Position numbers and translations under genes: made by a program. Below the pieces are notes generated by a model. The model was not told the DNA's origin. It made no database searches and worked only from the letters and a program-made list of their open reading frames with translations. Source: Geosiphon pyriformis uo1 (Eukaryota > Fungi > Glomeromycota). From it: a stretch of DNA of 64,000 nucleotides. The DNA lies in contig JAAOMT010000617.1 in the NCBI GenBank assembly GCA_016748015.1, positions 628,635-692,634 on the forward strand, written 5' to 3'. Position 1 is the stretch's first letter, and each line of letters begins with the position of its first letter. Below, one piece after another: positions 1 to 56,850 of this stretch.

Positions 1-1593
1 CCAAAAAAAGCTTAAGAAAAAAAAAACCTATAAAACACTTTCTTTAAGTATTGGTAACTTGATATTAGAATACCATTCAGACAGAAACAATATCTATAAT
101 AATAAATTCTTTAGTCAGTGGAAAGAACTCTTTATAGTCAACAAAGTTTTGAACAATGATTCTTATATTCTTTAAAATCAATCTGGAACAATCTTTAAAG
201 ATTGTCCTGTTCATGATACATGACTCAAAAAATATTATAAACAACCTGATTGGCTGCTTGTTGTGGTAATACCAACTCAATTGATTAGCAAAAATCAAGT
301 ATAAATAAATGCACCATTCCCAAAACAGAGGTATCTTCAATTGACATGAACAATTATTTTCTGGATTAAAACATTCAAAATGCTTTCTATACTTTTCATA
401 AATATTGGATCAAAAACTATCCAAATGCTACTCTAATCATTAGAAAACAAACCACCATAATTGATAACAGTGGAACACATACTGTTATTAGACCAAAGAA
501 AACTACTACCAGAAAAGAAAAAATTGGTAGTAAAATAGATAAATATCTGTTGGAAAGTATAACAACAGCTATACTCCTACCTTCCAATACAATTGAAAAA
601 ACACTCCAAGAAATCTTACCCATAGACAAAAACTTGTCATATGGAAAGCAATTAGAACTCTATGATTGCTTTGGTGAAATTATAGAGAATAAGAAACTCA
701 TAAAGAAAACAACTTTAGAGATACAGGCAGAAATTTTGGGCATTATATGATTAGATGTCCCAAAAGTTTTAACTATTGCTAAAAGAGCCAAAACTCTAAT
801 ACAAAGATTTGGTCTCTTGAATACAAAACTCATTTTGCCTCAAGTATTATATATCTTATCTACAAAAAACTTTAATAAACTAGTTAGCTTTAAGTTAGAT
901 AAAACCCTTCAAATAGATTACACTATAAATATGATTTTGCCAGAGCTCAATCTCTTTGGAGAGGATAATATTATGGTTGAAACTTATACTTCTTATTAAT
1001 TATCATATGTATTAGCCACTAATGTCATATAAATTAGCCACTCTATTTTTAGAAAGTGATCATTGACCTGATTATTAATCTAGTTGTTGATCTGATTATT
1101 GACCACTTTTGATAGCTATATAAGTGATAAATCTCTTAGCTGTAGAAAAGCATGTAGAAATAAAAAAAATAAAATAACAACTTTCATCTCAATTATTTTT
1201 TTATTGCTAATTTCTCTTTCCCTACCTTTAAGTATTCAAACATTTTAAGATAAAAAATTACTTGTTGGTTATTTCTTACCCTTTTCTTGAATAAAACATG
1301 ACTGAAGAGTACATCTGATACTTGCTATTAAATTCTAAAAGTGCTAATGTGAGGCATAGAATTATACCAAGTGTAATTATTTGTTAACAGTACAGACTAT
1401 CTCTCTACTTTCAGATTCCCTGGTTATTTTTGAAAAGTACAGCAACTAAGATATTTTATGAGACTGATCTTACACATTGAATCTATACTTATTCAATTTG
1501 CTCTTTGAAGTTGAATTCTCTTTGATTCTTTTTATTACCCTATAATTCTGTTTTCTCTTGCTATTCATTAGCTTGTTACTTCAATCTGTAACA
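1..1593 (+). mobile_element. Ty3/Gypsy family A element A1, 3' part (integrase tail, ORF3, PPT, 3' LTR 969-1593)
   Basis: Colinear with the reverse complement of 24495-26200 and 55588-57200. Integrase GPY/F tail ends at TAA 302-304; PPT GGAGAGGATAA at ~958-968; LTR runs TATTATGG...TGTAACA. Confidence 0.9.
346..999 (+). pseudogene. Family A ORF3 (env-position accessory protein, ~217 aa, 2 internal stops), reads through the PPT into the LTR
   Basis: ATG 346 is in frame with ORF-track fragments 550-750 and 817-999; homologous to 25206-25862 and 56194-56850. Confidence 0.8.
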
Positions 1594-6084: not shown

Positions 6085-8874
6085 TCAAGGGAAAACCCTC
6101 CCGCTTTCCTTTAAAGAACTTGAATTATCAGTAACTTTTATCGCGACCATTTTGCTGAAGTCAATCGACAGATCCCCATTTTCGAGTACCGTTTTATTTA
6201 TAGGCGGCGTAGCTTCATTATTCGCCTTCAAACTTGCACCCTCGGTATCTTTTAAATAAACCTCGGGACTCGTACATGTACCCAATACTCGTCTCATGTG
6301 ATTTGTAAGATAACTAAGACCCAGTTGATACGATGCATTCATCCAGCCAAATCCTTCTCGCGGTACGAATTTAAAATCAGTGCCAACGTTACCATATTCA
6401 ACGTTGAGTAAATGGCTAAGTGAAACAACATCATATTTTTCGGGAACAACGCCATTAAAATCAACAAAAGATTTAGTGATGGTGTAAAGCCATCGATAAG
6501 CCAAGCGGCGGGCTTCATTAATATATCCGTAAATCTCTAAGCCACGCCATGCCATCATTTGATGAGGGGCCCAACCAAGAGGATAATCCCATTGTCGATT
6601 AGGACGATCAAGTGTTATCGTACCACGAGATTCTTCTGTGCCACTTACAAGTCCACCGAAAACTTCGAACTTGGGGAGTGAATTGCGGCTACATATAGAA
6701 TTTTTCAAATTTGAAATATTAAAATAAGAATTGAATTAATTGTTGATAAATCGAAAGAAATAATGATTTACACTAGTTTTTCGGCCTGGTGTTTGCTGGC
6801 ACAACCGGCCCAAAGAGCCCAAAAGGCAGTGACTGATTCGTACTCTGACTGTTTTTCCTTCACTGTATCATAGTCATAATACAGGCTTTTCTCCTCATTC
6901 CAACAGTATCGATCTATTCTTTCTTTACGCAACATTGCCCGTTCGAACCATACAGCACTTGTTTCAACGTTTCCATCTTCAAGTACGAAATGGTCGTCAT
7001 ATTTATCACGTATTAATTCACCTAAATCGATTTCATACTTGTAAAGTAGAGCGTTAAGATCAATTGTGGTCAGATTTGCACATCGCTTTTCGAAACGGTA
7101 TGTGGTGTCATGCCCAGATTCACGAACAGCGCGATCATGTAAAAAGTATTCATCCAATTCGGGCTCATGAATTTCCATATTATGGTATTTAGCGGCATAT
7201 TCTGGGATGCTAAGACCCAATCGGGCTGCATAAGGTAAAATCAGATGATCAAAATGGCTAGCCTCGGTTTCAGGTGGAATACCAAGACCGATAGGGTAGT
7301 ATTTACTCAAGCCAGTCTTTAAATCAAAGCGTGGAGCACACATCCATACAGTATGATATTCTTTAATGGCCGCAGTGATAGCAGTAGCGAGCCACTGTTT
7401 TTTTTCTGCTTCAGTTTCAGTTAAATTTTCATATACTCTGATCGCCATGTCAGTAAGGAAGGGTGGTTGAGATCTGGTCAAATAATAACTTCGATTGGCA
7501 TTAAGTATTTTGCCATAATGTTTAATCTCATATGTAAAATTGTCAACCATTCCTCTCGCTACTTCAATCTTCCCATCTAGCGCCAAACCTAGAGTTTCGA
7601 AATAAGAATCCCATCCATACATTTCGTTGAAACGGCCACCGGGAACAACGAAAGGAACACCGCGCAGTGTGGTGTTTCCTTGATCGTCAACATATTTGCG
7701 CATTGCTAAAGAGAGAATCCCAGGTCTATCATTGATGCTCTTCACGTATTCAGGGGATATATCTTGTGGCAACATTTCTACTTGGAGGTTCAAATGGGTT
7801 CGAGTTTCAGCGACATGCTTGTAGTATTCAAAAACTTCCGTTTCACCGTAGGGAATATAAATACGAGCATTATGATTTGCGGTTCGATTTTTGGGGTCCG
7901 CGCATATAACCTCTAATCCTTCAGCATCAATCCGCCTGGTAAGTCCATCCCAAAAATGACACTTTATCATTCGAGACAGCCTATCCACGGGATTTTCATT
8001 TAATCGTGCTTCATCTAAGACAATATATTTGCGCCCATTGTCAAGAGCCAAAGCTAGTTCTTGAAGCAAAGTGGAGAGCATATAGGTTCCACGGACCTCG
8101 AATTTGGAATAGCCACCAGAACCTAGAGTGCCTAAGGTAACAGATTTCGGTCCAGCGTCGTTTATGGTGATTTGACAATCACCATCTGTATCTTCTTGTT
8201 CTAAGATTAAACGTCGGGTTTCAAGCACGTCTATTAAGAATTTACGGGGTATAGCCGCCTTTTCGTCTAGTTATCGGTTTGGGAGGTGGAGTAGAGGAGT
8301 TGTTTCAGTCAATGAAAACGAGGTGTGAATTGATGGAATGTTCATTTCCTAGATCGTGTGCTGATGAGATTGGTGTTGGTATTGAGATCATTATGATTAA
8401 CCGATCGATTTTTGATTGATTTAGGCCGCCGACGACAAGGAGTTGAAAGAAAAGAACTCTATCAAAATGGCCTTCATCAATCTCCAGATTGTTCCCAGAC
8501 ACCATGTTTGATACAAAACACTATCTATAAAAATAAATAATATTTTATAATAATTACCGTGTGATGCTCTACGTTTTCTCAGCGCTCGTAGACCATCCTG
8601 TGGAGTGGGAGGCCTAGAGGGTACTTGACCATGTGATGTCTAAATAAACAAAAAAGGGATAAATAGCGGTAAACAACCAAAATCAAAAATTTTGACGGTT
8701 CTCAGGCCTCAATAGAGGAGTTAAAGCAAATTGAAAGTATAAAACTAGTCCCGTTTTTAAGCTTACAGCAAATCTCCTTACGCGATCAACATTGGAGCTT
8801 GTAAAGCTATTATTTCCTGAATTATAATAAACCGCAGCAGGTGCGTAAGGAATGTTGTCCTCCGAATCGTTCAT
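6085..8874 (-). CDS. NTH1: Neutral trehalase (GH37), 4 exons: 8874-8767, 8639-8558, 8266-6772, 6688-6085; ~762 aa
   Basis: RRASHD PKA site, Ca-binding [49 protein letters not shown] and EGFGWMN motifs; GT-AG introns give a continuous frame (2289 nt). Confidence 0.95.
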
Positions 8875-9400: not shown

Positions 9401-10992
9401 TTATTTTTGTCTGTCAGAATATCCCCAATCACAGGTTCCATCCTCACGAAGGACACCAATACGATGATAATAGGTTCGTGCCCTAACATATGGATCTAAT
9501 TCCAATGTTGCACGCCTTAATTTTATCTTTGTCTCATCTCTCTCTTTTTTCAATTCTTTATTAAACTTTTCATCGATCCATCTCCTCGTTAGTTCTTCGA
9601 AATTTCTTACCAACTGTTCTCGCACTTTTAATTTTTCTTCCTTTGTTGCCACATCATTCATCCTTTCATTTTCTTCTTCAGTTGAGGGTATATATTTATA
9701 TTCCCATGGATCTTGACCACCAAAATTGGACATTAAATGGTCAGGTTCAATGAATTCTAGTAAATCTTTGTCATCACGTGTAAAATGAATTTTGGATGCA
9801 ACCACTGGATCGAGTAGTGTAGAAATAATTCTCCAAACACTTTGAAATACCCAAGGGGCTTTATGAACAATGCAAATGCCTAGACTTTCCGGGTAATATG
9901 CTTCAAAACATTGGATCATAAATTTCACGCCTTGCAAATCCTAAAAGTTGAAAAAAACAATGAACAAAATACTTTACTATGACAACTTTGAAAATAGAAA
10001 ACTTGTGAAATATGTGAATGCAAACCATATTTTGCAAACCGGAGCCTGCCATATTGAAAACAAGACATGCGGTTTCCACTGGAGGTTCAATCATCAAACG
10101 CACTGTTTCCATCACCCATATAGTAAACCGTTGCGTGACTTCTAAACTCTGATCATCCTTCTTGTGAAATCGGACATTAATAAAACTTGAACATTCATAA
10201 TCATTCCCAGGTCGAGATTAAGGAAAATAAATGTTAATACGTGACGAAATTCATTGCTACCGATACTGGAACGAAAGATTGCACTTACCATATCGGTCTC
10301 CCTTCTCTATCTGTGCCTCGACAATAATTCTTACCTAATTCCAATTGTGCACGAAACCCAGGGAGATTCTTTTGGGCAAAATAATTTTCTAAGCCAGGTT
10401 CACCTAGCGCCAAGATACTTGAAACGCCAATTTGTAAGCTCCATTTCAAAGTAGAAACCAGCATCGCCAACGCCTTATGCACATCCCACTTTCGCGCGCG
10501 TAGAAACCTCAAAAATATTAAATCGGGATCATCAGCACCACTGAGTCGCCAAGCTGCGGTACGAAGTTCTCCTGGTGTATATAATTCTAGGGCAGCATTG
10601 AGCTCGCCCGATTCGTTATATTTATCATCTTTGATCTCTTTTTTGGAACTTGGCCGGGAAGTTGGTTTTGGTTGATAGCTAGTTGTACCGTTGGTATCAC
10701 CACTGATACCACCTTCAGAATTCAATGATTTTTTGGAACTCCCACCATTTAAAAATGTCCCCACCTTTGACGATTTGCTGCTTGAGGTACTGTTGGGCTT
10801 TAATTTTGTAGACTCAAATTTCAAGGCATCTCCATTACTGTATGTCAAGTTTTCGTCGTTTTCAGGAGACAGCAAATTTAAGAAAAGAGTCCAGAATTTA
10901 CGTAAGAGTTCCTCTTGTTCAATTGTTAAAGTGTCCACGTGTCCCGAGTTAGGGTCCTTTTGCTGTTGTTGTAAGGCGATGGTGGTCGACAT
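9401..10992 (-). CDS. CRAL-TRIO (Sec14-family, Csr1/Sfh2-like) phosphatidylinositol transfer protein, 3 exons
   Basis: DPDLIFLRFLRARKWDV (CRAL-TRIO N), GTDREGRPIC, FEAYYPESLG, HKAPWVF and LDPVVASKIHF; canonical introns at ~10288-10186 and ~10026-9941. Confidence 0.9.
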
Positions 10993-11356
10993 TTCGAGTT
11001 GCTGTCTCTTTAAAAAAAGAATCTTGGCTATCTTTTTGATGTTAATATAAAAGTTAAGCAGTCGGCGTTTTTATATGGATGGTGACAAAAATTACACAAC
11101 TAATTGCGTGGGAAACTAAAGTTGAATGATTGTGTTAAAAATTCAAAGTTAATAAAGTTAATGATTCTTATTTACGATAAATTTTCCCCGATCAAAGATC
11201 TTCCTTTTATATATACCTCAGATAAGCTCTTGATTAAGTCATTGTGCATCATAAGTGTACGTATCGCAATACCCAGTGTGGGCGTTGGTAGTTATTTTAA
11301 GTTGTGGCTGAGGGGAACCCGCGTTTGACTACTTTCTTCTGAATAGACAGAGCAAT

Positions 11357-17243: not shown

Positions 17244-17894
17244 TTAATATTGAGCTCCATTGTGATCTCTTAACTCGAATTTTCCATTTTTGAGTATTTT
17301 TTGAACTTTTTTCTCGAAAATTACTTGTGTTATCTTGTTCTGTAATTCTTCAAATTGGGCATTGATTATTTTTCCCATTTGGTTAATAATAATGGAGTCC
17401 ATTGCTAAATTGAATAAGATTTCTGGTCGGTCTTGAAATCTGATTTGTAATTAATAAATAGCTTGTATTTGTGTAGTTAGATTGTTTTTTCTTACAAATT
17501 GTTCAAGTTGTTGTAATATTTTTGGGTCAAATAATTGCTTTGTCTTATCTGTATATAAGTTCTAAATATTCAAGTGTTATTCCAAGTGAAAATAACAAAA
17601 GTTTCTTGGAGGTTGTTGTGTCTACTAATTCCATGTTTCTATTATTAACTCTGGATATTGGGTGACTTTTGGCTGTGTTTTTATTGCCAATTTTACCTTT
17701 GTGATTATTTTTTTGATAGTGTTTTCTGTTTTCCTCTGTATTTTATCTCGTGATCTTTTTCTAGTGTTTTTGTATCTGATGGTTTGTTGATTAATTGTAA
17801 TTTTCATCTCCTGTTGTTGAATTAGTTGAAAAAGTTGTTGTGCTAGTGAATAAATGTTGTTGGTAATTTTTATTTTTCTGTTATCTTTTATCAT
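17244..17894 (-). pseudogene. Family B ORF3 (env-position accessory protein)
   Basis: One frame with transition-derived stops: ...FCYFHL...QAIY.LQIRFQDRPEIL...MGKIINAQFEEL...GAQY*; homologous to 53972-54600. Confidence 0.75.
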
Positions 17895-25205: not shown

Positions 25206-25862
25206 CTAATAAAAACTATGAATTTCAACCATAACATCATCCTCTCCAAAGAGATTGAGCTTTGGCAAAATCAAACTATTTAGGGGATACTCTATTTGAA
25301 GAGTTTTATCTAACTCAAAACTAACTAGTTTGTTGAAGTTTTTTGTGGATAAGATATATAAAACTTGAGGCAAAATGAGCTTTGTGTCCAAGAGACCAAA
25401 TCTTTGTATAAGAGTTTTGGCTCTTCTTGCAATAGTCAAAACTCTTGGGATATCTAATCATACAATGTCCAAAATTTCCACTTGTATCTCAGAAGTTGTT
25501 TTCTTTATAAGCTTTATGTCTTCTATGATTTCACCAAGACGACTATAGAGTTCTAGTTGTCTTCCATATGACAAGTTTTTGTCTATGGGCAAGCTTTCTT
25601 TAATTGTTTTTCCAATTGTGATGGAAGATGCAAGTATTACTGCTGTTATACTTTTCAGCAAATACTTATCCATTTTGCTACCAATTCTTTTTCTTCTGAT
25701 AGTTGTTTTCTTTGGTCTGATAACAGTATGTGTTTTACTGTTGTCAGTTATTGTAGTTTGTTTTCCAATAGTCAGAGTAGCATTTGGATAGTTTTTAATT
25801 CAATACTCATGAAGAGTATAGAAAGTGGTTTGAATGTTTTGATCCAGAAAATAATTGTTCAT
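25206..25862 (-). pseudogene. Family A ORF3 (A2 copy)
   Basis: ATG 25862 in frame with fragments 25458-25673 and 25206-25439. Confidence 0.8.
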
Positions 25863-35049: not shown

Positions 35050-35265
35050 ATTAGCCAATCAGATGTAAATGTAGTAAATGTGGAATTCCAAGATTCCCCT
35101 CAGAGAAATTGCAAGATTCCAGGAATTTCAGGATTCTCCAATAAGGAATTGCAGGATTCCAAAATTCCAGGATTCCTCTCATCAGGAATTACAGGATTCC
35201 AGAAATTCCAGAATTCCTGTCACAAGGAATTGAAGAATTGAGAAATCTCAAATATGTATATATAG
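35050..35265 (+). promoter_or_regulatory. B-family LTR U3 promoter: CCAAT box, GGAATT/GGATTCC repeat array, TATA-like TATATATAG
   Basis: AGCCAATCAG at ~35053, ~37-bp units GGAATTGCAGGATTCCAGGAATTCCAGGATTCC x3-4, TATATATAG at ~35257; present in all four B LTRs. Confidence 0.6.
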
Positions 35266-35541
35266 CAGTAGCATTAGAAGCAAAAAAGAGAGAATCAACA
35301 CCAAGAATTCTTAGCTTAGTTATTACAATTCTCAAATAAATAATTATTCATTATATCAAATTTATTCTCCACTATCAACACTTCATGTTGATGATAACTG
35401 ATACTTAACCATACTGGAACAATAGCTCTTGATTATGGCTATTGACAGGATACTAACTTACAAATTGCCTTGGCTTATTTCTTATTTTCTCTTTTATCTT
35501 TCTTTATTTTCTTTGTTGTCTACTAACTTGATTAAAGAATT

Positions 35542-35700
35542 TACTCTTGGAGAACTTATGGAGAAATAAAGCTTACTAAAAATACTTACTCTTGGAGAAC
35601 TTACAAAGGAATAAAACTTACTAAAAATACTTACTCTTGGAGGACTTATGGAGGAATAAACTTGCTTAAACAACACTTACTTTTGGAGAACTTATGGAGG
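35542..35700 (+). repeat. 39-bp tandem repeat in the B2 LTR (also 55150-55310)
   Basis: TACTCTTGGAGAACTTATGGAGGAATAAAGCTTACTAAAAA-like unit x4; absent from the B1 LTRs. Confidence 0.85.
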
Positions 35701-35975
35701 AACTGACATTAGGAAACCACACTGGTATACACTTATGGAGGATATTGTACCAGGAAAATCATCAACTATCAAGCTGAGCAAGCAATTGGCAAAACTATGG
35801 TGCCAGGAAACTACTAATAAATTGTTATCATTGAATCTCTGTCCATTATACAAAAAACTCAATTGGAAAACCTTTAGATAAAATACCTTCAGATTATCAT
35901 CATCATTGATCGCCTTGAGCACTAAGTTATGGGTTTGTTATTCACTCGACACCCCAAAGAATCACCTGTAACATT

Positions 35976-42227: not shown

Positions 42228-44059
42228 GAATATTTCAACCCAAAAATATAACAAAACCAGAACAATACCAACGAAAAATATAACAAAAGATGAACATACA
42301 AAAATATCAACAACTGCAACATTATATAAACACTCAATAGTTCAAGGAGAATTTATCTCAAACAGAATGAAAGAGTATCAAACAACAATCAAAATATTTT
42401 ATCACTCACCAAAATATACTTTATCAGAAAAATAGAAGAGATCTAGAGCAACCAACCAGAGTAATTACAGAGCCAGAAAAAGAGACAATATTATTCAACA
42501 TGCACTCAAATCCAACAGCAGGACACTTTCACAAAGAAGCAACCATGGAAAGAATCAGAAAAAGATACTATTGGCCATCAATGTATTCAGACATCATCCA
42601 ATATGTTCAAAATTGTGATGCTTGTCAGTAAAAAGGAGATATGAAACCCAGTGAACCATTAAAACCAATCAAAGTGAGACAACCATTCAATTGTATTGGA
42701 ATTGATTTAGTTGGACCATTAACAATCACTGGTGAAAGAAACAGGTACATAGCAGTAGCCATGGACTATCTCACTAAATGGCCAGAGGCAAAAGCAATTC
42801 AAAGAACAGATGCAGAATCCATTGCCAAATTCATTTATCAAGATTTAATTTGTTGACATGGATGTCCAAAAGAATTATTATCAGACCAAGGAACTCATTT
42901 TGTGAACAGAACATTAACAGAATTAAGCCAAAGATTCAGAATTAAGAGACCACTATTATCACCATATTATCTACAAACCAACAGATTAGTTAAAAGATTC
43001 AACAGAACATTGTGTGAAGCAATAGCTAAACTCAGCCAAAAAAACCAAAATGATTGGAATTTGTTGATACCATCAGTACTATTTGCTTATCGGACAATGA
43101 AGCAAGATACTACACAAGCAACACCATTTAAATTAGTATATGATAGAACAGCAACACAACCAGTGGAAATAAAAGTCAGCACATACCCAACCAAACCAAT
43201 AACAGAAGAAAATTTCAAAAACACATTGTTGAAAAGAACATATGACCTAATGGAAACATTAGAAAACAAACAACAAAGAGCAGCTGATAACATACAAAAG
43301 TTACAAAAGAAACAAAAAGAAAGACATTGTTACTGGAGGTTTTTGGTCTCTTTTCTGTAATGTTGTTAATACCTGTTTGCTATGAATTCACGTTTTCTGG
43401 ATGTGATTGAACCTCCAGTAACTGAATTTTCTCTTCAAATTATCTTCTATAATTTGAACTGCTGGGTTTATAAGTGGAATGGCCAATTCCTTGCCAGTTA
43501 CTTTATGTAGTTACATTGTAGTAAATGTCAACTCTTTCCCAGGAATTGCTTGTCTAGAAGCTCACTAAAAATGTGTAGTTACTTTGCTGTGAAAGTCAAC
43601 TCTTCTACAGGAATCTTGTCTGTAGACTACCCTAATAATTGTAATAAGAAAAGAAAAGAAAAATAAAAGAAATGTAAAAGAAATAAGATTTTATCAAGGG
43701 AAACGTTTTCTATTCAGGCCTGGAGTCCCTAACAGTTTACTAAAATTGGTAGCTAATCAATTTCAAAATGTTAGTTGGGTTTTGGGGATTTTTCAAGTGC
43801 AATAATTAAAGAATTTGGTTTTTTGAATTATTTGATATTTATTTCTTTCTGTGTGTGTAAGAATGATTCTAAATAATAAATCTAAAGTAAGATACATTTT
43901 TTTGAAGAGAAAAGCTCTTCTTTTATACAACTTGTTGTAGTACTAGTCTATAAACTTGCACTTTTTCTTTTTGCTCAAATTTTAGTGAACTAAAGATACA
44001 TTTTGATGAACTACAAGTTATTTCACTGAACTATTGATTAATTTGGGTGAACTATTTAT

Positions 44060-44116
44060 AATTTCGGCGAATTTCTTATAAATTTCGGCGAATTTCTGTA
44101 AATTTCGGCGAATTTT
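44060..44116. repeat. ~20-bp LTR tandem repeat AATTTCGGCGAATTTCTGTA (x3 here, x2 at 53330-53366)
   Basis: Seen directly; degenerate copies lie adjacent. Confidence 0.85.
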
Positions 44117-44300
44117 TGAATATTACAAAGTTCAGGATATTGTGTAATTTGATCATCCTACTTTCTGTTATACTAATTAGATTATTTTAATTGAATCATG
44201 ATATGTGATAATTGATTAAATAATAAATAATAATTTGAAATAATATTAATATACTAATTAATTATAGGAATTATAAGGGTAATTTCATGCTAATTAATAG

Positions 44301-45008
44301 CTAAAATTCTACTGGTAACATAATCTCCTCCTCAAGACTGAGTTCCATCAAAGTCCAAGCACTATCCATAATATTGAGATAGTGATCCAAAATAATTGAA
44401 GTAATCTGATCTGAAAATTGTTGAAATTTCAGTTCTGTGAGTTTGCCAATGTATTGAACTTTCATTGGTTGTAGTATTGGATTTTGTAGAATATTTTCAC
44501 AAGTGTTAAACAAATCATAGAGTCTAAAAGCTGCTCTAAGTTTGTAGCAAATGTTTGTTGGTCCAGCTGCTGTTTTAAATTCATTGTGGATTTGTTTTTG
44601 TATAGCTTCAGGAGTGAGATTTGTTGCTTCAAGTTTCAATTTTCATTCATAAAGTGTCTTTCCAATGTGAAAGTATTTATAGATAGGGGTGTGTTCATTG
44701 TTCTGTTCATTGAGAAGTAGTAGAAGTTTTTGTTGTATTGTAGCATTTGGTGGAATGTCAATAGGGGCAATTAAAAGATTTTCTTCTAGTGCTTGCTTCA
44801 AAAGTCTTGATAACTTATTTTCAGAGTGACTTCTTGTTTTTCTTTTATAGGGATGATAGTTCTGTGAATGATTTGCTACTGGGGCTGTGGTTTTTTTCTG
44901 AATGTAATTAATTTGACTTCTATTAATTGTTATGAATAAGTCAGGAAGTGTTTTTAAGGCTAACATTAACTTTTGGGATATTTGTTGAATATTTCGGAGA
45001 ATAATCAT
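44301..45008 (-). pseudogene. Family C ORF3 (~235 aa, one internal stop), reads into the LTR
   Basis: ORFs 44643-45008 and 44301-44639 are in one frame; YKYFHIGK, AAFRLYDLF, IGKLTELKFQQF. Confidence 0.8.
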
Positions 45009-45154
45009 GATAAAATTGACTAATTATGAAAAAAGAAAATAAGAAAAATTATTTTTGGAATATGGGGTTTTTATTTGTTTTTGGGTTTGGGTGTTTTTTG
45101 TAATTTATTTACTATTTTTGTCTTTGTGTTTTTATTGGAGAATTATTGTAAAAT

Positions 45155-46540
45155 TTAAGTGTTCAAGTTTGGTTGTTGTTTTATTATAATTATTGGTTCT
45201 AAATTTCGAGGAATATCTTCAGGATTAATTAAAGGGGAATGTGTACCAATTTGTGGAATTAATGGTTCAGGATTGTTTCTGGAATAATAGTGTTTTAATC
45301 TGTCTTCATGTGCAACTTTTGCTAGTATTTTGTTATCAAGTCTTAACTTGTATGATCCATTGCCTAAAATTTCGTGAATATAAAATGGTTCATCCCATTT
45401 GTTTTCAAATTTCCCACTTCATTGTTTTTCAGTCTTAGTTCTGTGTAAGAGAACTTTATTTCTAACTTTAAATTCATTGGTAATAAGTGGTAATTTGTTG
45501 TTATGTCTTTCTTTTTGTTGAGCTTGGGAATGTTTAATATGAGTTGCTGCTATTCTTTTTTTTCCTTCCAGTGTACTAAGAAGAGTGTAGGCTCTTTTTT
45601 GGAGTGTTTCTTGAAAGTTTTCTTCATTGATTGGTTGCACTGGGTATGTTTCTACTGTAAAATTAATTGGTAATGTTGCTGTCCTTCCATAAGTAAGATC
45701 AAATGGTGTGTGTTTTATAGTATCTTGTTTTAGTGTTCTGTATGCTAGTAACACTGATGGAATAAAGATATCTCATTTCTGCTCAAAGTCTGTTGAGACT
45801 TTGGCTAGAGATTTACACAATGTTTTGTTGAAACGTTCTACAAGTCCATTTGTTTGAGGGTAATAAGATGATAATAGAGATCTTTTGACATTAAACCATT
45901 CACAAATTTCTTGTATCAAGTTGTTCACAAAATGTGTTCCTTAATCAGATAAAAGTTCAATTGGGCATTTATGTCTACAGATAATGTCTTCATAGATGAA
46001 ATTTGCTACTGATTTTGCATCTGCTCTTTGGATGGCTCTAGCTTCAAGCCATTTGGTAAAATAATCTACTGCAACTGCAATATAACAATTTTCTTGGGTT
46101 GTGATAGATAATGGTCTGACTAAATCAATTCCAACTCTATTAAAAGGTTGTCCAACTTTGATTGGATTTAAAGGTTCTGTGGGGCGAGTTCCTCTTCTTC
46201 TTTGACAACTATCACAAGATTCTACATATTGTCAAATGTCTTTTTGCATGTGAGGCCAAAAATAATGTTCAAAAGTTCTTTGAATTGTTTCATCTCTTCC
46301 CAAGTGTGCTGAAGAAAGATCTGTGTGCATGTTGTATAAAATTGTTTCTTTTTTATTTTCCTGTACTAATCTGAGTGGTTGGTCTGGATTTTTACAATTT
46401 TTGTAATATATTTTGTTATGGTGTATAAAATATTGTTTGGATTGATGTTGTAATCAATTTTTTTTACTTGGAGACCAATTTTCCGGTATAGTGAGAGTCT
46501 TCAAATAGTTTTTGATGTTGTTGTAGTTTTCTGGATCCAT
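45155..46540 (-). pseudogene. C1 integrase, stand-alone ORF
   Basis: ATG 46540 (MDPENY), CDSC, VGIDLV, DYFTKW, YPQTNGLVERFN, C-terminal RNLEPIIII. Confidence 0.88.
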
Positions 46541-46608
46541 TGTTGGTGATTTTGTTGTTTTGTTCTGCTGTTAAGTTTGTTGGTATTTTGTTGGTATTGA
46601 TGTTGGTA

Positions 46609-49600
46609 TTAATATTGTCTCATTCTTGAGAGGCTATTAACATTGGTGTGTAGTTTTCCTGGTTTGTAATGTACAATGTATCTGTAGTCTGCTAGGAAAT
46701 CATTCCATTGAGACTGTTTGGCACTTTGTTTAGTTTTCTTTTTATTAAGCCATTTGAGGCCAATATTGTCAGTTATTATGTCAAATTCTTTTCTATTCTT
46801 CAGGTATTGTTGAAAGTGTTTGAGAGTCCAGATGACTGCAGTGGCTTTCAGTTCAGTTGAGCCATATTTGAGTTCTGTTGACTTGAGTGTTTTGCTGGCA
46901 TAGGCAATAACTTGTTCCTGGCCATTTTCATCCAATTGTGATAAAATGGCACCAAATGCTATGTGTGAAGCATCAGTGGCTAATTGAAATTGTTTGTTAA
47001 AGTCTGGGTAAGCAAGAACTGGAGCTATTGTTAATTTTCTTTTGAGAGTTTCAAAAGCTTTTTGTTGTTTTTCAGTTCATTTGTATGGTACGTTTTTGTT
47101 GGTAAGATAATTGAGTGGTTTAGCAATTTCTGAGAATTCTTTTATGAATTTTCGATAGTAAGAGGCTAATCCTACAAATCCTTTTAGTTCTGTAGTATTT
47201 TTGGGAGTTTGAAAGTTTTTGACAGCACTGATTGTTTCTGGATTTGGTTTGACTCCATCTTTACTAACTATGTGTCCAAGAAAGATCAAGCTTGTTTTTC
47301 CAAAGTGACATTTCTCAATGTTTAACTTTAATCCTGCTTTCCATAATCGTTGAAAAACTTCTTGCAGGTGAATAAAATGAGTCTCAAAGCTTGGCAAGTA
47401 TACATTAGTGTTATCAAAATAGACAACTACTGATTGCCACAAAAGTCCTTCATATACAACATTCATGAGTCACTGGAATGTTGCTAATACATTGCAGAGT
47501 CCAAAAGGCATAACATTAAACTCATAGTTTCCTCTCTGGGTAGTAAATGCTGTTTTGGGTCGGTTTTTTGGGTCCATTTAGACTTGCCAGTATTCACTTT
47601 TCAAGTTTAAAGTTGAGAAGAACTTGGCTTTTCCTAGAGCATCTAGCATGTCATCAATTCTTGGAAGAGGGTAGGCATTTCCAATTATAACACTATTCAG
47701 TTGTTTATAATCAACACAGAATCTGATTTTCCCATTTTTCTTTTTAACTAAAACTACTGATGAGGCCCAAGAACTTCTTGATGGTTGAATCAATCCGTTA
47801 TTGAGCATTTTTTGGACCTCTTCTCTGATGAATTGGTGGCTGGCAGGTGGCACTCGATAAGCTTGTTGATGTTTTGGTGAAGCATCTCCTATATGGATCT
47901 GATGTTGAACAATATCCATTTTTCCCAAGTCATTGTTGTCTTTTGCAAATATATCTGCAAATTCAGCTATCAATTGTTTCAATTGTCTTTGTTGTTGAGG
48001 TTTTAAGAGACCCATGTTGATTTGAGAGAGTTTTTTTTCTAAAAAGTGGTAGTTTTCAGTAGTAGAAATGATATTTGGATTTGGAAGTAGAGTATATCTT
48101 ACAATTTCGATGAAATTAGAGACAATTTGAGAGTTTTCATCTTGAAAAATATTGCTGTGTATGATTCCAATCTCTAGTTTGTTTAATAAGACAATAGGGT
48201 AATTATTGGGATTGTAGAATGTAACTCAAATTTTTTTCATTCCTTTGAGAATATAAACGTTTGGAATTGAGATTTTATGCTTCAAACAGATTTGTTTATT
48301 GGATTCAAAGATTTATTGTGTAGTGGTGGGTTTTGAGCAAGTGTAAATTTCGTGATATTCTCCAAAAAGTGAAATGGTAATTGGCTGGGGAAGTTGAAGA
48401 ATCTGGTGAGATTCATTTTGTGTATTAAGAGCTATGTTTACTGAAACTGTAAATTGTCCAGTTGAACCAAAACCTTGAATTCTTCTTTCACTTTTTTCCA
48501 ATTGTTCTCTGTTGTTTACTGATTGTAAACCCGAAATGTTGATTAAGGATAAGTAGATTGCTTGAGCAATTTTTTTAGCATGTTTAATTTTGAATGGTTT
48601 GTCTGTCTCATTCTGCAACATGATGATAATATCTCCAGTGTATCCTGCATCTATAACTTCTCCTCTAATATTGATTTTTTTGCTTACCAATGATGATTTG
48701 GAGGCAATTTGAACCATTACTCCTGGTGGAATTTCAAGAGCAATTTTGAGATTGATTTTTGTCAAAGACTTTGGTTGGAGAACCAAAGTATCTTTTCCTG
48801 GGTATCTTAAGTCATATTCAGCATCAATTTCGTGTGCTTTTTTTGGTCTGATTCTTTGGCCATGGTTGTCAAAATATTTAAGTTGTAGAGGTGGTTGCTT
48901 TTTAAGAAGATAGATGGGGGTGGTTGGTAGTTCTTCTCTTAGTTTAGCTACTCCAAATTCGATTTCATTTTCATCATTCTTATCTGGTAGAGGAATGCTA
49001 AGAGCATAACATTCTAAACACCATTGGTCATCACAAGACATAATACATTCTTCACATAATTAAATGTTTATTTGTTCTAATCGTTGAATTTGAGCTTCTT
49101 TGGTCAGATATGTGTGGCTTGCAATTTGGTGGTAGGTTTTTACTTCATCTTCATAATCAAATCCAGCTAATTCCATGGTATACTCAATATATTCAGCTTC
49201 TTTCATTTGGCGGACATCTTCTTGGGTGGCTCTATTGATCAATGCCATTGCTAGATCAAAAATCATTTTAGCATCATGAGAGTAGTGGTAAAGTTTATTG
49301 AAAGCACTGTTGTATGCTGCATCAAATGGTGTTCCTCTTCTGACTTTTTCTGAAATTGATAGAGCATATTGACAGGTTTGATCACATACTCCTCCTCTCA
49401 TTGCTANNNNNNNNNNNNNNNNNNNNATATGTGTGGCTTGCAATTTGGTGGTAGGTTTTTACTTCATCTTCATAATCAAATCCAGCTAATTCCATGGTAT
49501 ACTCAATATATTCAGCTTCTTTCATTTGGCGGACATCTTCTTGGGTGGCTCTATTGATCAATGCCATTGCTAGATCAAAAATCATTTTAGCATCATGAGA

Positions 49601-52552
49601 GTAGTGGTAAAGTTTATTGAAAGCACTGTTGTATGCTGCATCAAATGGTGTTCCTCTTCTGACTTTTTCTGAAATTGATAGAGCATATTGACAGGTTTGA
49701 TCACATACTCCTCCTCTCATTGCTACATCAATTCAATTGCATTCTTCTGGTAGCATTTTTCCACATGTAAGGCAAGGAGTTTTGTCTCATTTTCCACTTC
49801 TCTTTGGAGATCCAAATCATTCTCTATGGCACACTTTGCAAAAGTAACAAGTACAAGTTTCGTATTTCTCTTCTGGGGAAATACAGGCTCCTATAGATGA
49901 AAGCTTTTTTTTGCAATCTTTGCATTTTAGTGGAATGTATGGTGGTTTTTTTCATGGTTCTGGTGTGGAATATCTAACTTTCTTCTATCCTCTTGATTCT
50001 TCAAAAATCTCTTGTTCTGTTTCCTCAGCCCAATTGGATGGTGATCCAAAAGCCATGTAGGTTTCAGTGAGTGGTATTTCTTTTTCTTCTTCAAATTTAA
50101 ATACTGGAGCTTTTTCTGATTGTTTGTTAAAGATACCACAGGTTGCAGGTACAATGATATATTGTCCTTGGTATGAGATTTTAAGTTTTTAAGTTTCCCA
50201 GTTCAGGTTTGCATTGGCCTTGAGAAGCCAATCATTTCCAATTAGAGCTTGATATTGGAGTGCATCCATAACAAAAACTTTAACTGGAATGGTGATTTCA
50301 TTAATTGTAAAGGGGAAATCATCAATTTCTTCCACTGAAGTCTTCTTCATACCATCAGCTGTAACAATAACTGTTTGAACTGGTCTATCTATGTTTCGTT
50401 TAAGTTGTTGTATCAGCTGGTAAGTGATGATACTTCCAGCCAATCCACTATCTAAGATTAAGCAAATGGGTTTTCCTTCCACTATAGCTTCTGTATACAT
50501 AGCAGTAATTGCTTTCTGTTCATTAATTGCTGTATTACTAAGCAGAAATGGTGATTCATTTGCTTCAAATTCAAATGGAAATATATCTGACAGATTGGCA
50601 TTTTGGGTAATTTGAGCTGGTGGAATGGTGTGGTTGGAAGGGTTTAATCTTGGTGCCACAACTTTACCTTCAGAAAGTGCAGTTTGTTGAAAATCCGATT
50701 CCTCTGGTATTGTAAGATAACTGGGTTGATTGTGATAGTGATTGGGTCTTTGCTGACCAGAATTTCGGGGAACCAACTGGTTATTTAGATTGATTCTGTT
50801 GTGGTTACTCTGCAATTGATTTTGGAGTGTGAATTGGTTATGTTGAACCAATCTTCTTGCTGGTACTTGATATTGTTGAGTGGGTGGTATTTGATATGGC
50901 TGAATTAGTAAAGGTTGCTGATATTGTTGCTGCATTGGTTGTGGAGCTGGTGAATAGTAACTGTTTTGATTTTGTGGTCTTGGTGAATAATAAGTTGGTG
51001 GTAAAGATTGGTAATAGGATTGTTGTGGTGAAGAGTAACGTTGATTACTCCTGTTTTGTTGGTCTCTTTGTAATTTTCTACAATCTCATTTCCAGTGTCC
51101 TGGAATTCCACAATAATGACAATTTTGAGGTTGGTTGTTGGATGGTGATCCAAAATTGTTTTAGTTGTGGCATTGTGGGGGTTGATATCTTTGTGGTTGT
51201 TGTTGCTGTTGTTGTTGGTTTGTGAAGTAGCTTTCAATTTTTTTTGTGAGTTGGTCTATTTTCTCTTCAGCTGCTGAGCTGGTTTCTCCAATTGCAAGGT
51301 TTACAAGCTTGGTGTGATTTGCTTCTTCCATTGCCATTTCATAGCTTTTTACATGTCTAATAGCAGTTGCTAAATCTGTTGGAACATGTGGATGGACTTT
51401 CTTAATCAGTTTGTCTTTTAACCCTGCTATAAACTGATCCAGAATTTGAGCATCAGAATAGTAGTCATTGGTTTCCAATTGTCAGATTCGTCTGAGAAGT
51501 TTGTTATATCTTTTAAGATAGATTATAACAGTTTCAGATGTTTCTTGTTTGATATTGTGAAAGTGGTTTCTGAGAGTGATAGAGATATTGTTGTTAGTGA
51601 ATTGTTGTAGAAAAGCATCTTTGAATGCTTGCCAGTTTTCAAATGGTTCTTCTAAATTTTCAAACCATTCTTCTGCTGTTCCTTGGAGAAAGTAGGAAAT
51701 TGCTTTAAGCATTCTTGCTGCAATCCAACTATTTGTATCTTCTGCTTTTTGAACTTTGTTAAGCTATTCTTGAGGACTGGTATCATTGTCTTCACCAGTG
51801 AATTCTGGGATTTTTGCAATGTAAGCAGTTGCCATTTTTTCTTTGTTTTCTGTAATTTCTTCTGATTCTGATTCAGTTTCTTTACTTTTCAAGCTTTCTG
51901 AATGATTACTTTTGTTTTTCTGTAAGTAATCAATGATATTGGCACTTGTTGATATTGGTTCTTGCTGTTAAGTAGGGTTTCTAGGTGACTGAAAATCTTC
52001 TGGTCTGGAGAAACAGTTGAGTGGTAAATTTGGTGTTTGTGGTTGAACAAGTGAAATTGGAAATGGTGTAATAGAAATTGGTAATTTGACACTGGTTCCT
52101 TGTTCAGGTGTTCACAAGTGTTTGGCAGTTGTCTTTTGTAGTGTTGGAGTGTTTGGAGTGGTTTTTGAGTATTGCTTCAATCTTTGTTTGCCTTTGTTGC
52201 TTGTTTTTGTCTCTGATTCAAAGTCAAAAGAGTATTTAGACTGTACTGAGTATTTTTCTTCACAATATTCAATAATGTTAAAATTAAGTTCTTGGAAGTA
52301 GATAGCAAATGTTTTACTGTTTAGATCTTCTGTTCCCAATTGTGAATAGTGCACTAAATTATTGTAGAGGTTGCTTCTAACTTCTGAAATGTTGTAGTTT
52401 TCAAAAAGATAATTGTTGATGCAGTTTTCAATGTATTGGTATACTAATTTCTTTACAACTTCAATTCCATCTGGAATGTTGAATCTTTGCTTGCAGTGGG
52501 TGTAAATTGACTGGTAATACTCTAGAGTTGCTGTGTCTGGTGTGGTCACCAC
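46609..52552 (-). pseudogene. C1 ORF1 Gag-PR-Cys-rich domain-dUTPase-RT-RNase H, one reading frame
   Basis: All ORF-track fragments share one frame after removing the 319-nt gap artefact; dUTPase ~48460-48850 (YDLRYP, GEVIDAGYTG, KIAQAI, GFGSTG). Confidence 0.9.
49108..49725. other. Scaffold gap (20 N, 49407-49426) flanked by an identical 299-bp duplication
   Basis: 49108-49406 equals 49427-49725. Confidence 0.9.
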
Positions 52553-53971
52553 TTTGAATTTGTTGTTGCTGTGTTATTTCCATGGGAGAGCACCAAATGT
52601 TACTAGAAGTTTTTGGTCTCTTTTCTGTAATGTTGTTGATATCTGTTTGCTGTGAATTCATGTTTTCTGGATGTGGTTGAACCTCCAGTAACTGAATTTT
52701 TTCTTCAAATTATCTCCTATAATTTGAACTGCTGGGCTTATAAGTGGAATGGCCAATTCCTTGCCAATTACTTTATGTAGTTACGTTGTAGTAAACGTCA
52801 ACTCTTTCCCAGGAATTGCTCATCTGAAAGCTCACTAAAAATGTGTAGTTATTTTGCTGTGAAAGTCAACTCTTCTACAAGAATCTTGTCTGTAGACTAC
52901 CCTAATAATTGTAATAAGAAAAGAAAAGAAAAATAAAAGAAATGTAAAAGAAATAAGGTTTTATCAAGAGAAACATTTTCTATCCAGGCCTGGAGTTCCT
53001 AACAGTTTACTGAAATTGGTAGCTAATCAATTTCGAAATGTTAGTTGGGTTTTGGGGATTTTCCAAGTACAATAATTAAAGAATTTGGTTTTTTAAATTA
53101 TTTGATATTTATTTCTTTCTGTGTGTGTAGGAATGGTTCTAAGTAATAAATCTAAAGTAAGATATATTTTCTTGAAGAGAAAAGCTCTTCTTTTATACAA
53201 TTTGTTGTAGTACTAGTCTATAAACTTGCACTTTTTCTTTTTGCTCAAATTTCAGCAAATTAAAGATACATTTTGATGAACTACAAGTTATTTTGCTGAA
53301 CTATTGATTAATTTGGGTAAAGTATTCATAATTTCGGCGAATTTCTGTAAATTTCGGCGAATTTTTGAATGTTACAAAGTTCAGGATATTGTGTAATTTG
53401 ATCATCCTACTTTCTGTTATACTAATTAGATTATTTTAATTGAATTGTGATATGTAATAATTGATTAAATAATAAATAATAATTTGAAATGATATTAATA
53501 TACTAATTAATTATAGGAATTATAAGGGTAATTTTATGCTAATTAATAGCTAAAATTCTACTGGTAACAACATGATAACCAACTACCAGATAAACCAGTT
53601 GAATTCAAGATTGGAGACAAAGTACTACTACATTGTACCAAAGCAGAAAAACAATAGAATGGAAAATTTGACCCCAAATAGGACAGACCATTTCACATAG
53701 AAAAAAATTTAGGAAATAAAGCTTACAAATTAAGATTGAATAACAAAATCTTGACCAAAGCAGCATATAGAGATCGACTGAAACTATACCACCATATAGC
53801 ATTATCATCCACCAGTAATATTCCACAATTAGGAGTACAGAGAATACTAGTCCAACCAGATGAGATTCCATGAAATCTAGAACCAATCATTATCATTGAC
53901 AACAACACGTCCAATTGATTGACAAAAGAATATATAAGAACATAATCAACGCAACAAAAGAGATCAGAAAG

Positions 53972-54600
53972 ATGGAAATTATGGACAATATCCATTCACT
54001 AGCCCAACAAATTTTTCAATTAATCCAACACCAGGAGATGGAAATTACAATCAATTAACAAATCATTTGTTACAAAAATATGACAAAAATACCACAAAAC
54101 AAAGCACAGAAAAGACTTGAAAATGTCATTGACAAAATCATTACAAAAGTAAAATTGGCAATAAAAAAATTGACAAAAGAGTCAATATACCAAGAATTAA
54201 CAAAAGAAACTTGGAATTGGTGGATACAACAATTTCCAAAAAACTATTGTTATTTTTACTTGGAACAACATGTGAATATTCAGACTTATATACGGATAAA
54301 ACAAAGCAGTTATTTAACACAACAATACTACAACAACTAGAACATTTTGTGGGGAAAAACAACTTATCCACACAAGCTCAAGCTATATACCAAATACACA
54401 CAGCATTTCAGGATCAACCAAAAATCCTACTCAACAAAGCAATGGAAATGGTTACCAGTAATTAATTGAGAAAAATCACCAATGCTCAATTTGAAAAATT
54501 ACAGACTCAAATAACACAAGTAGTTCTCGAAAACAAAATTCAGGAAATACTTTAAGAGGGAGAATTAAAGGAATTAAATTTCGATAGAGCTCAATATTAA
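53972..54600 (+). pseudogene. Family B ORF3 (B2 copy, one frameshift)
   Basis: MEIMDNIHSLAQQIFQLI...YCYFYL...QAIYQIHTAFQDQP...LRKITNAQFEKL...FDRAQY*; stop lies directly before the PPT. Confidence 0.78.
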
Positions 54601-56193
54601 AAGGAGGGAATAATGTTACTCATAGAATATAGGAAACATAGTATTATTAGTCAGTAGATATTAGCCAATCAGATGTAGACATAGTAAATATGAAATTCCA
54701 AGATTCCTCTCAGAGGAATTGCAGGATTCCAGGAATTTCAGGATTCTCCAATAAGGAATTGCAGGATTCCAAAATTCCAGGATTCCTCTCATCAGGAATC
54801 GCAGGATTCCAGGAATTTTGGAATTTCTGTTACAAGGAATTGAAAAATTGAGGAATCTTAAATATGTATATATAGCAGTAGCATTAGAAGCAGAAAAGAG
54901 AGAATCAACACCAAGAATTCTTAGCTTAGTTACCACAATCCTCAAATAAATAATTATTCACTATATCAAATTCATTCTCCACTATCAACATTTCATGTTA
55001 ATGATAACTAATACTTAACCATACTGAAACAATAGCTCTTGATCATAGCTATTGACAGGATACTAACTTGCAAATTGCCTTGGCTTATTTCTTATTTTTT
55101 CTTTTATCTTTCTTTATTTTCTTTGTTGTCCACTAACTTGATTAAAAGATTTACTCTTGGAGAACTTATAAAGAAATAAAACTTACTAAAAATACTTACT
55201 CTTGGAAAACTTATAGAGGAATAAAGCTTACTAAAAATATTTACTCTTGGAGGACTTATGGAGGAATAAACTTGCTTAAACAACACTTACTCTTAGAGAA
55301 CTTATGGAGGAACTGACATCAGGAAACCACACTGGTATACACTTACAGAAGATATCATACCAAGAGAATCATCAACCATCAAGCTGAGCAAGCAATTGGC
55401 GAAACTACAGTGCCAGAAAACTACTAATAAACTGTTACTATTGAATCTTTGTCCATTATACAAAAAACTCAATTGGAAAACCTTCAGATAAAATACCTTC
55501 AGATTATCATCATCACCGATTGTCTTGAGCACCAAGTTACGGGTTTGTTATTCACTCAACACCCCAAAGAATCACCTGTAATAATGGATTCAATATGTAA
55601 GATTAGTCTCATAAAATATCTCAGTCACTATACTTTTCAAAAATAACCAGAGAATTTGAAGGTAGAAGAATAGTCCGTACTGTCAACAAATGATCACACA
55701 CTGGTATAATTCTATGCCTTACATTGGTGCTCTTAGAATTCAATATCAGGTATCAAATATACTTTCAATCACATTTTATTCAATAGTCTTCAAATGCTGC
55801 AATTACATGTTTCAGAAAAAAGATAAGAAAACCAACAAGTAATCTTTTATCCCAAGATGTTTAGATACTTGAAGATAGAGAAAGAAAAATTAGTGATAAG
55901 AGAATAATTGAAATGAAAGTTGTTATTTTATTTATTTGATTTCCTTGATTTCTACATGTTTTTCTACAACTAAGAGATTCATTACTTATATAGCTATCAA
56001 AAGTGGTCAATAATTAGGTTAATGACTAAGTCAATAATCAGATCAATAATCAGGTCAATGATCAAGTTATTGATCAAGTCAATGATCAGGTCAATAATTA
56101 AGTCAATGGTTAGATCATAGATCAAGTTAATGATTACTTTCTAAAAATAGAGTGGCTAATTTATATGACATCAATGGCTAATACATGTGATAA

Positions 56194-56850
56194 TTAATAA
56201 GAAGTATAAGTTTCAAGCATAACATTATCCTCTCCAAAGAAATTGAGCTCCAGCAAAATCAACTTATTTATAATATAATCTATTTGAAGGGTTTTATCTA
56301 ACTCAAAGCTAACTAGTTTGTTGAAGTCTTTTGTAAATAAAGTATATAACACTTGAGACAAAATAAGTTTTGTATTCAAAAGATCAAATCTTTGTATTAG
56401 AGTTTTGGCTTTTCTAGTAATAGTTAAAACTCTTAAGACATTTAACCATATAATGTCCAAAATTTCTGCCTGTATCTTTGAAGTTGTTTTTTTTATAAGT
56501 TTCATATCTTTTATGATTTCATTAAGGTGACCATAGAGTTTTAATTGCCTTCCATATGACAAGTTTTTGTCTATAAGTAAGATTTCTTAGAGTGTTTTTC
56601 CAATTGTGTTGGAAGGTAGGAGTATAGCTGCTGTTATACTTTCTAATAGATATTTATCTATTTTACTACCAATTTTTTCTCTTCTAATAGTAGTTTTCTT
56701 TGGTCTAATAACAGTATGTGTTCTATTGTTATCAGTTATGGTGGTTTGTTTTCCAATGGTCAAAGTAGCATTTAGATAGTTTTTGATCCAATACTTATGG
56801 AGAGTATAGAAAGTGTTTTGAATGTTTTGATCCAAAAAATAATTGTTCAT
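56194..56850 (-). pseudogene. Family A ORF3 (A3 copy)
   Basis: Fragments 56587-56850 and 56194-56562 are in one frame. Confidence 0.8.

Follow-up and report, generated by a model that had tools for sequence, protein, structure and literature searches.

A fast-evolving ORF3 and a CpG-retaining promoter array in Ty3/Gypsy retrotransposons of Geosiphon pyriformis

The 64,000 nucleotides analyzed here (the window; Geosiphon pyriformis uo1, assembly GCA_016748015.1, contig JAAOMT010000617.1, positions 628,635 to 692,634 of the forward strand) are a nest of decayed Ty3/Gypsy retrotransposons of the long terminal repeat (LTR) kind with a few host genes alongside, and these elements carry between pol and the 3′ LTR an additional open reading frame (ORF), ORF3, which lies in the sense direction, is present in most copies and is under selection. 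To judge from sequence searches, ORF3 belongs to no recognized family. In one element family, B, a few units of a tandem array in the U3 region of the LTR have escaped the loss of CpGs, and we propose, with a probability of about 0.38, that the ORF3 protein could act as a regulator in the nucleus by binding the DNA of its own family's U3 units, so that the promoter stays unmethylated there and remains active.

ORF3 and its homologues

Self-comparison of the window gave LTR pairs for three families (A, B and C), in which ORF3 and the features at its borders in B lie as follows.

44301..45008, minus strand: ORF3 of B, 235 codons from the ATG, with one in-frame TGA at codon 122 (44643-44645) and the last 20 nt in the 3′ LTR
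45009..45154, minus strand: spacer of B from the pol stop to the ORF3 ATG, 146 nt, with a pyrimidine tract and an AG 11 nt before the ATG
44324..44333, minus strand: polypurine tract (PPT) of B, overlapped by the ORF3 codons EEEI
17244..17894, minus strand: ORF3 of A, copy 2, 216 codons with 5 stops, homologous to B
53972..54600, plus strand: ORF3 of A, copy 1, with one frameshift and 3 stops
346..999, plus strand: ORF3 of C, 218 codons with 2 stops
25206..25862, minus strand: ORF3 of C, 218 codons with 2 stops, placed as in A and B
56194..56850, minus strand: ORF3 of C, 218 codons with 1 stop

The initial annotation had counted six readable copies; six are present (one in B, two in A and three in C), and none of them is an intact open frame. 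Its sense ORF with a start of its own 3′ of the integrase is found in B, where the 235-codon reading stands and the internal TGA had been omitted, while the run into the LTR that it ascribed to A and C holds for C (31 nt) and not for A, which stops about 15 nt short. Over the B frame the other five frames contain 14-23 stops and shuffles 16.9 on average, none of 2000 shuffles having as few as one. Because homologues carry R, Q or W opposite codon 122 (R in 60, Q in 51 and W in 9 of the 120 listed), the TGA of B is read as CpG-type decay after insertion.

Selection was measured on transversions, which are mostly older than insertion, as the ratio of nonsynonymous to synonymous changes (pN/pS), a dN/dS-type check that the initial annotation had suggested. 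The ratio for ORF3 was 0.49 (p=0.023) in the A pair and 0.27 (p=0.009) and 0.30 in two C pairs, the third C pair having too few changes, compared with 0.02-0.11 for pol and 0.75-1.17 for wrong frames; between B ORF3 and one contig, 24 of the 34 listed differences (of 37) fall at third positions (p=1e-5). ORF3 is under purifying selection, looser than that on pol, and it diverges much faster than the enzymes (20-30% versus 48-57% identity). Accessory proteins of transposable elements (TEs) evolve faster than core ones according to passages of PMC13547354, and the earlier picture of a conserved, fast-evolving, non-envelope (non-Env) accessory gene was borne out.

The protein features agree with that picture. 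Across 11 ORF3 proteins of 216-245 amino acids with 0-3 cysteines, the highest 19-residue hydropathy is 0.44-1.46 (the N-terminal peak of B is only about 1.0), and each has in its N-terminal half a basic 20-mer of net charge +5 to +8, so that both the lack of a transmembrane (TM) segment and the basic patch noted earlier were recovered. An AlphaFold model predicts a helix and a hairpin at the N terminus, a flexible linker that is basic, and a confident, soluble helical core. The search for a DNA-binding fold suggested beforehand was answered in part: the confident core was obtained, the fold search from this model gave no significant match, and a ParB/YhcG-type helix-turn-helix is a weak lead only. 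The core would resemble DUF1016_N (the YhcG N-terminus) and the central domain of ParB/Spo0J in its helix order and in a Y-x-I-G-x-x-L motif followed at similar spacing by a helix-turn-helix-like segment, but every score lies under accepted thresholds.

A search with B ORF3 gave 208 matches among 554 candidates, and all 120 listed are hypothetical proteins of G. pyriformis at 62-92% identity. The B profile had 34 matches among 1.84 billion representatives; the seven looked up comprise five from Geosiphon and two metagenomic proteins (E 1.3e-15 and 6.4e-12). A second search returned 51 matches among 7483 candidates, 50 from Geosiphon and one metagenomic, and yielded two additional Geosiphon families, D and E, that bridge A and B. 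No match from another mycorrhizal fungus is named among those listed. Identity between families (A, B, D, E and the metagenomic proteins) is 18-36%, and the B/metagenome profile scores z 18-46 against shuffles with the A/D/E profile. In another element, L001, integrase follows reverse transcriptase (RT) and RNase H, and after a gap of 316 nt come an intact 230-residue ORF3, the PPT and the LTR, giving a homologue intact at the position equivalent to that in B; L001 and B are neighbors in the pol tree and resemble each other closely in ORF3 as well (six rows, no outgroup), and the nearest PDB match of the L001 RT-RNase H is Ty3 (E 6e-47).

Family C stands apart. Its ORF3 has 128 matches of its own among 652 candidates, its pol is the most distant (35-45% identity), and comparison with the A/B relatives by hhalign was null without the PPT-overlapping tail (66/128 and 7/128 shuffles reach the score), a second scorer giving z 3.5 against B/metagenome and nothing against A/D/E. 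On this sequence evidence the homology of C ORF3 to that of A and B is unproven. The three shared motifs, the profile-level homology and the ancestral status put forward earlier hold for A, B and their relatives; for C, once that tail is removed, the motif alignment is not significant and the other two are unproven.

Of the clusters listed as "hypothetical protein" in the public G. pyriformis annotation, at least 240 are transposon ORF3 or chimeras that include it.

U3 arrays and CpG survival

The elements have undergone heavy C-to-T decay, with 375 transitions and 8 transversions between five LTR pairs and a CpG observed/expected ratio of 0.06-0.24 versus 0.89-1.10 in host genes, which upholds the severe anti-TE mutation claimed earlier. 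The decay hits every context and is broader than CpG deamination alone; C-to-T changes per remaining site, over the LTR pairs of all families, are 0.17 at CA, 0.17 at CC, 0.13 at CT and 0.37 at CG. Repeat-induced point mutation is focused on CpA, and the decay of these LTR pairs is unlike it.

As the initial annotation had it, each family has its own U3 array; the arrays lie just upstream of the TATA box, with units of 40 bp in A, 12 bp in C and 20-21 bp in B, and every unit motif stays within the LTRs of its own family (two loose matches lie inside C). Seven units make up the B array in the 3′ LTR and six in the 5′ LTR, instead of three.

43328..44320, minus strand: 3′ LTR of B, sharing 92.9% identity with its 5′ counterpart
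44056..44115, minus strand: three distal U3 array units of B, core TTCGCCGAA, with 6 of the 8 CpGs of the 3′ LTR in 60 bp, protected from decay
43976..44055, minus strand: four further B array units at 20-21-bp spacing, upstream of the TATA box, the CpGs of the two proximal ones lost in most copies
52598..53569, minus strand: 5′ LTR of B, with six array units, of which the two distal ones keep all four of their CpGs

Among 44 sites in the five LTR pairs that were CpG at insertion, both LTRs are intact at 4/4 sites in the distal B units versus 0/40 elsewhere, the four sites representing two neighboring units and not four independent events. The most proximal B unit decayed differently in the two LTRs, and its decay therefore postdates insertion. 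Family-wide in run X1, which is possibly the same sample as the window and whose depth shares, taken from contigs, are approximate, 10 of the 12 CpG bases of the distal units change in less than 8% of depth and the other two in 12% and 28%, while the two proximal units keep C in 15-42% of depth; arginine CGN codons of the listed B proteins are kept in 12-72%. The array units are near-palindromic, and the simplest reading suggests that a bound protein shields the distal ones. This CpG protection, a new observation, lends indirect support to the earlier hypothesis that ORF3 binds its cognate array and makes it directly testable; the possible helix-turn-helix lends it weak support.

One A subfamily carries, downstream of the TATA box, a second array in which a unit of 45 bp recurs about four times (35541-35723 and 55144-55333) and which was not seen in the LTRs of the other A copy. 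An apparently complete LTR of the L001 family (L002:31-769) has a low-complexity TTCTTAAT array, and 3 of its 7 CpGs lie within AATT(T)CG, resembling half of a B unit.

Possible functions of ORF3

If ORF3 is the regulator proposed here, intact copies would supply a protein that enters the nuclei and acts in trans on the LTR array of its own family; its core, possibly of the ParB/YhcG type, would occupy the near-palindromic U3 units, which would stay locally unmethylated, and the LTR would stay transcribable where the genome methylates and deaminates elements. The closest functional analogy is VANC of VANDAL transposons, of which ORF3 is not a family member by the scans given below: passages of PMC5735166 describe VANC21 as binding tandem motifs and causing local CG hypomethylation, and the two are alike in a fast-evolving element protein and in family-specific non-coding tandem motifs. 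The B footprint resembles that local hypomethylation, indirectly, by CpG survival in the distal B units, and such survival is seen in neither A nor C. VANDALs are plant DNA transposons, whereas the ORF3 elements have their motifs in U3 and show no sparing elsewhere, and binding and demethylation by ORF3 are putative. No VANC family stood among the Pfam matches of 35 ORF3 members at E up to 1, the scans covering Pfam, PHROGs and PDB sequences. Tas of foamy viruses and Tax of HTLV are likewise encoded 3′ of pol and act on U3, the foamy genes overlapping the 3′ LTR; unlike the ORF3 elements, their viruses are vertebrate retroviruses with env, and no similarity of ORF3 to Tas/Tax-type viruses was found in Pfam, PDB or viral fold searches. 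We consider unlikely the more specific form of the proposal, in which a fungal Ty3/Gypsy lineage encodes an anti-silencing factor of its own that binds its cognate LTR array sequence-specifically through a helix-turn-helix of the bacterial ParB/YhcG type. CpGs left unmethylated and free of mutation would then be its footprint across the family, and the system would be VANC- or Tas-like and independently evolved.

Several points weigh against the proposed regulator. ORF3 and the array are connected by no result, and the B footprint is explained just as well by a host factor; arrays ahead of the TATA box are common in LTRs, and each of the four A LTRs has, ahead of its array, a perfect CCAAT box (AGCCAATCAG, at 35056 in the window and at the matching places), which points to host factor input. 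The few array CpGs of A (kept in 1/4 copies) and C (0/2) are unprotected, as is a proximal B unit with the same inferred core; the array motifs are essentially confined to U3, and the survival count and run X1 carry the limits given with them. On the protein side, the two metagenomic relatives are acidic overall (isoelectric point 5.4-5.9), Spo0J ranks 28th in the fold search, within noise, the hhalign comparison with YhcG-N is null (7/40 shuffles reach the score), YhcG having been picked after a Pfam hit with 16 pairs scored, and profile comparison with ParB and DUF3102 is null.

ORF3 may instead bind element RNA and, in the manner of Rev or CERV, promote export, translation or packaging of the genomic RNA in its unspliced form, in which case the U3 arrays would be ordinary host-bound enhancers. 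A small helical protein with a short basic patch and array protection in a single family fit this role, and CERV of the Caenorhabditis elegans element Cer1, which according to passages of PMC10309623 exports RNA and arises from a spliced mRNA, sets a precedent as a non-Env regulatory protein of a Ty3/Gypsy-type LTR retrotransposon, to which ORF3, with its putative regulatory role, is likened by description. The AG 11 nt before the B ATG is a possible splice acceptor, which would imply spliced and unspliced RNAs, but none is evident in the sequence inspected upstream of the L001 ORF3, and the footprint is not explained by an RNA role itself; we hold this explanation doubtful. A component of the particle or pre-integration complex, as integrase chaperone or for nuclear entry in the coenocytic hypha or target choice, would agree with the inheritance of ORF3 together with pol and with a basic patch that could serve as a nuclear localization signal, but ORF3 is a separate gene that evolves far faster than the enzymes, and related Ty3/Gypsy elements do without it. 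This role, for which passages of PMC7264820 offer retroviral accessory proteins as examples, seems quite unlikely.

Contact with a host defense protein (RNA interference, methyltransferase or chromatin factor) without sequence specificity would suit the fast divergence over a conserved hydrophobic frame and the strong host pressure on elements, and in the relative Rhizophagus TEs are targeted by CG methylation and small RNAs (passages of 10.1101/2021.03.30.436303); since decay is heavy in the elements of each of the three families, a general relief from silencing cannot be seen, and we regard this explanation as improbable. A degenerate Env or fusogen has an env-like position and orientation in its favor and nothing else, while the hydropathy, cysteine content, length and predicted soluble helical fold all speak against it, and with no TM anchor in the 11 proteins an Env identity is largely refuted and very improbable.

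Extra ORFs after pol are a known class, mostly of unknown function, and the sense examples in the consulted passages of PMC7264820 share position, strand, presence in most copies and conservation with ORF3; they are plant or insect env-like genes, some with TM segments, whereas ORF3 is fungal and soluble, and in B, C and L001 it overlaps both the PPT and the start of the LTR. Bdelloid rotifer LTR elements (passages of PMC5408684) also have a non-envelope ORF3 and, as in B, a dUTPase, but their ORF3s are recognizable enzymes (GDSL esterase, DEDDy nuclease), and no such domain or catalytic motif was found in the present ORF3. Literature searches found no description of the family, and the consulted part of PMC9040795 contains nothing on fungi.

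Natural variants of ORF3 number in the hundreds, one relative is intact in another element, the core model is confident and the candidate target is a defined stretch of 60 bp, so that a single binding assay can test whether the promoter of a retrotransposon is shielded by the element itself. LTR elements make up 41.2% of the G. pyriformis genome (passages of PMC11952901), and a self-protection factor, if true, could help explain this expansion. Mutation-free CpG patches across dead copies also offer a route to protein footprints without a methylome.

Element B and its surroundings

B is a Ty3/Gypsy LTR retrotransposon by its LTR pair, primer-binding site at the 5′ LTR edge, PPT, target duplication and protease-RT-RNase H-integrase order. 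It interrupts the integrase of an A copy, with a 4-bp target duplication, ACAT (43324-43327 and 53570-53573), which could be a decayed ACGT.

45155..52597, minus strand: decayed gag-pol of B, encoding Gag with a zinc knuckle, protease, Cys-rich region, dUTPase, second protease-like domain, RT, RNase H and integrase

Pfam matches cover the protease (Asp_protease_2, E 2e-7), dUTPase (E 1e-17), second protease-like domain (Spuma_A9PTase, E 3e-6), RT and RNase H, and tblastn places the integrase at 45212-46543. In the polyprotein (47581-51085, minus strand) the two protease-like domains flank the Cys-rich region and dUTPase. A perfect 319-bp tandem duplication on both sides of a 20-N gap (49108-49725, gap 49407-49426) is likely an assembly artefact.

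A conserved GAGCTCAA-like DNA motif stands right before the PPT (44324-44345 and matching places in A, C and L001) in reading frames that differ among them, and it is likely a cis element for plus-strand priming.

Two host genes of the window lack CpG depletion, at 6085-8270 and at 9401-11070 on the minus strand; from their translations we take them to resemble a neutral trehalase and a CRAL-TRIO lipid-binding protein.
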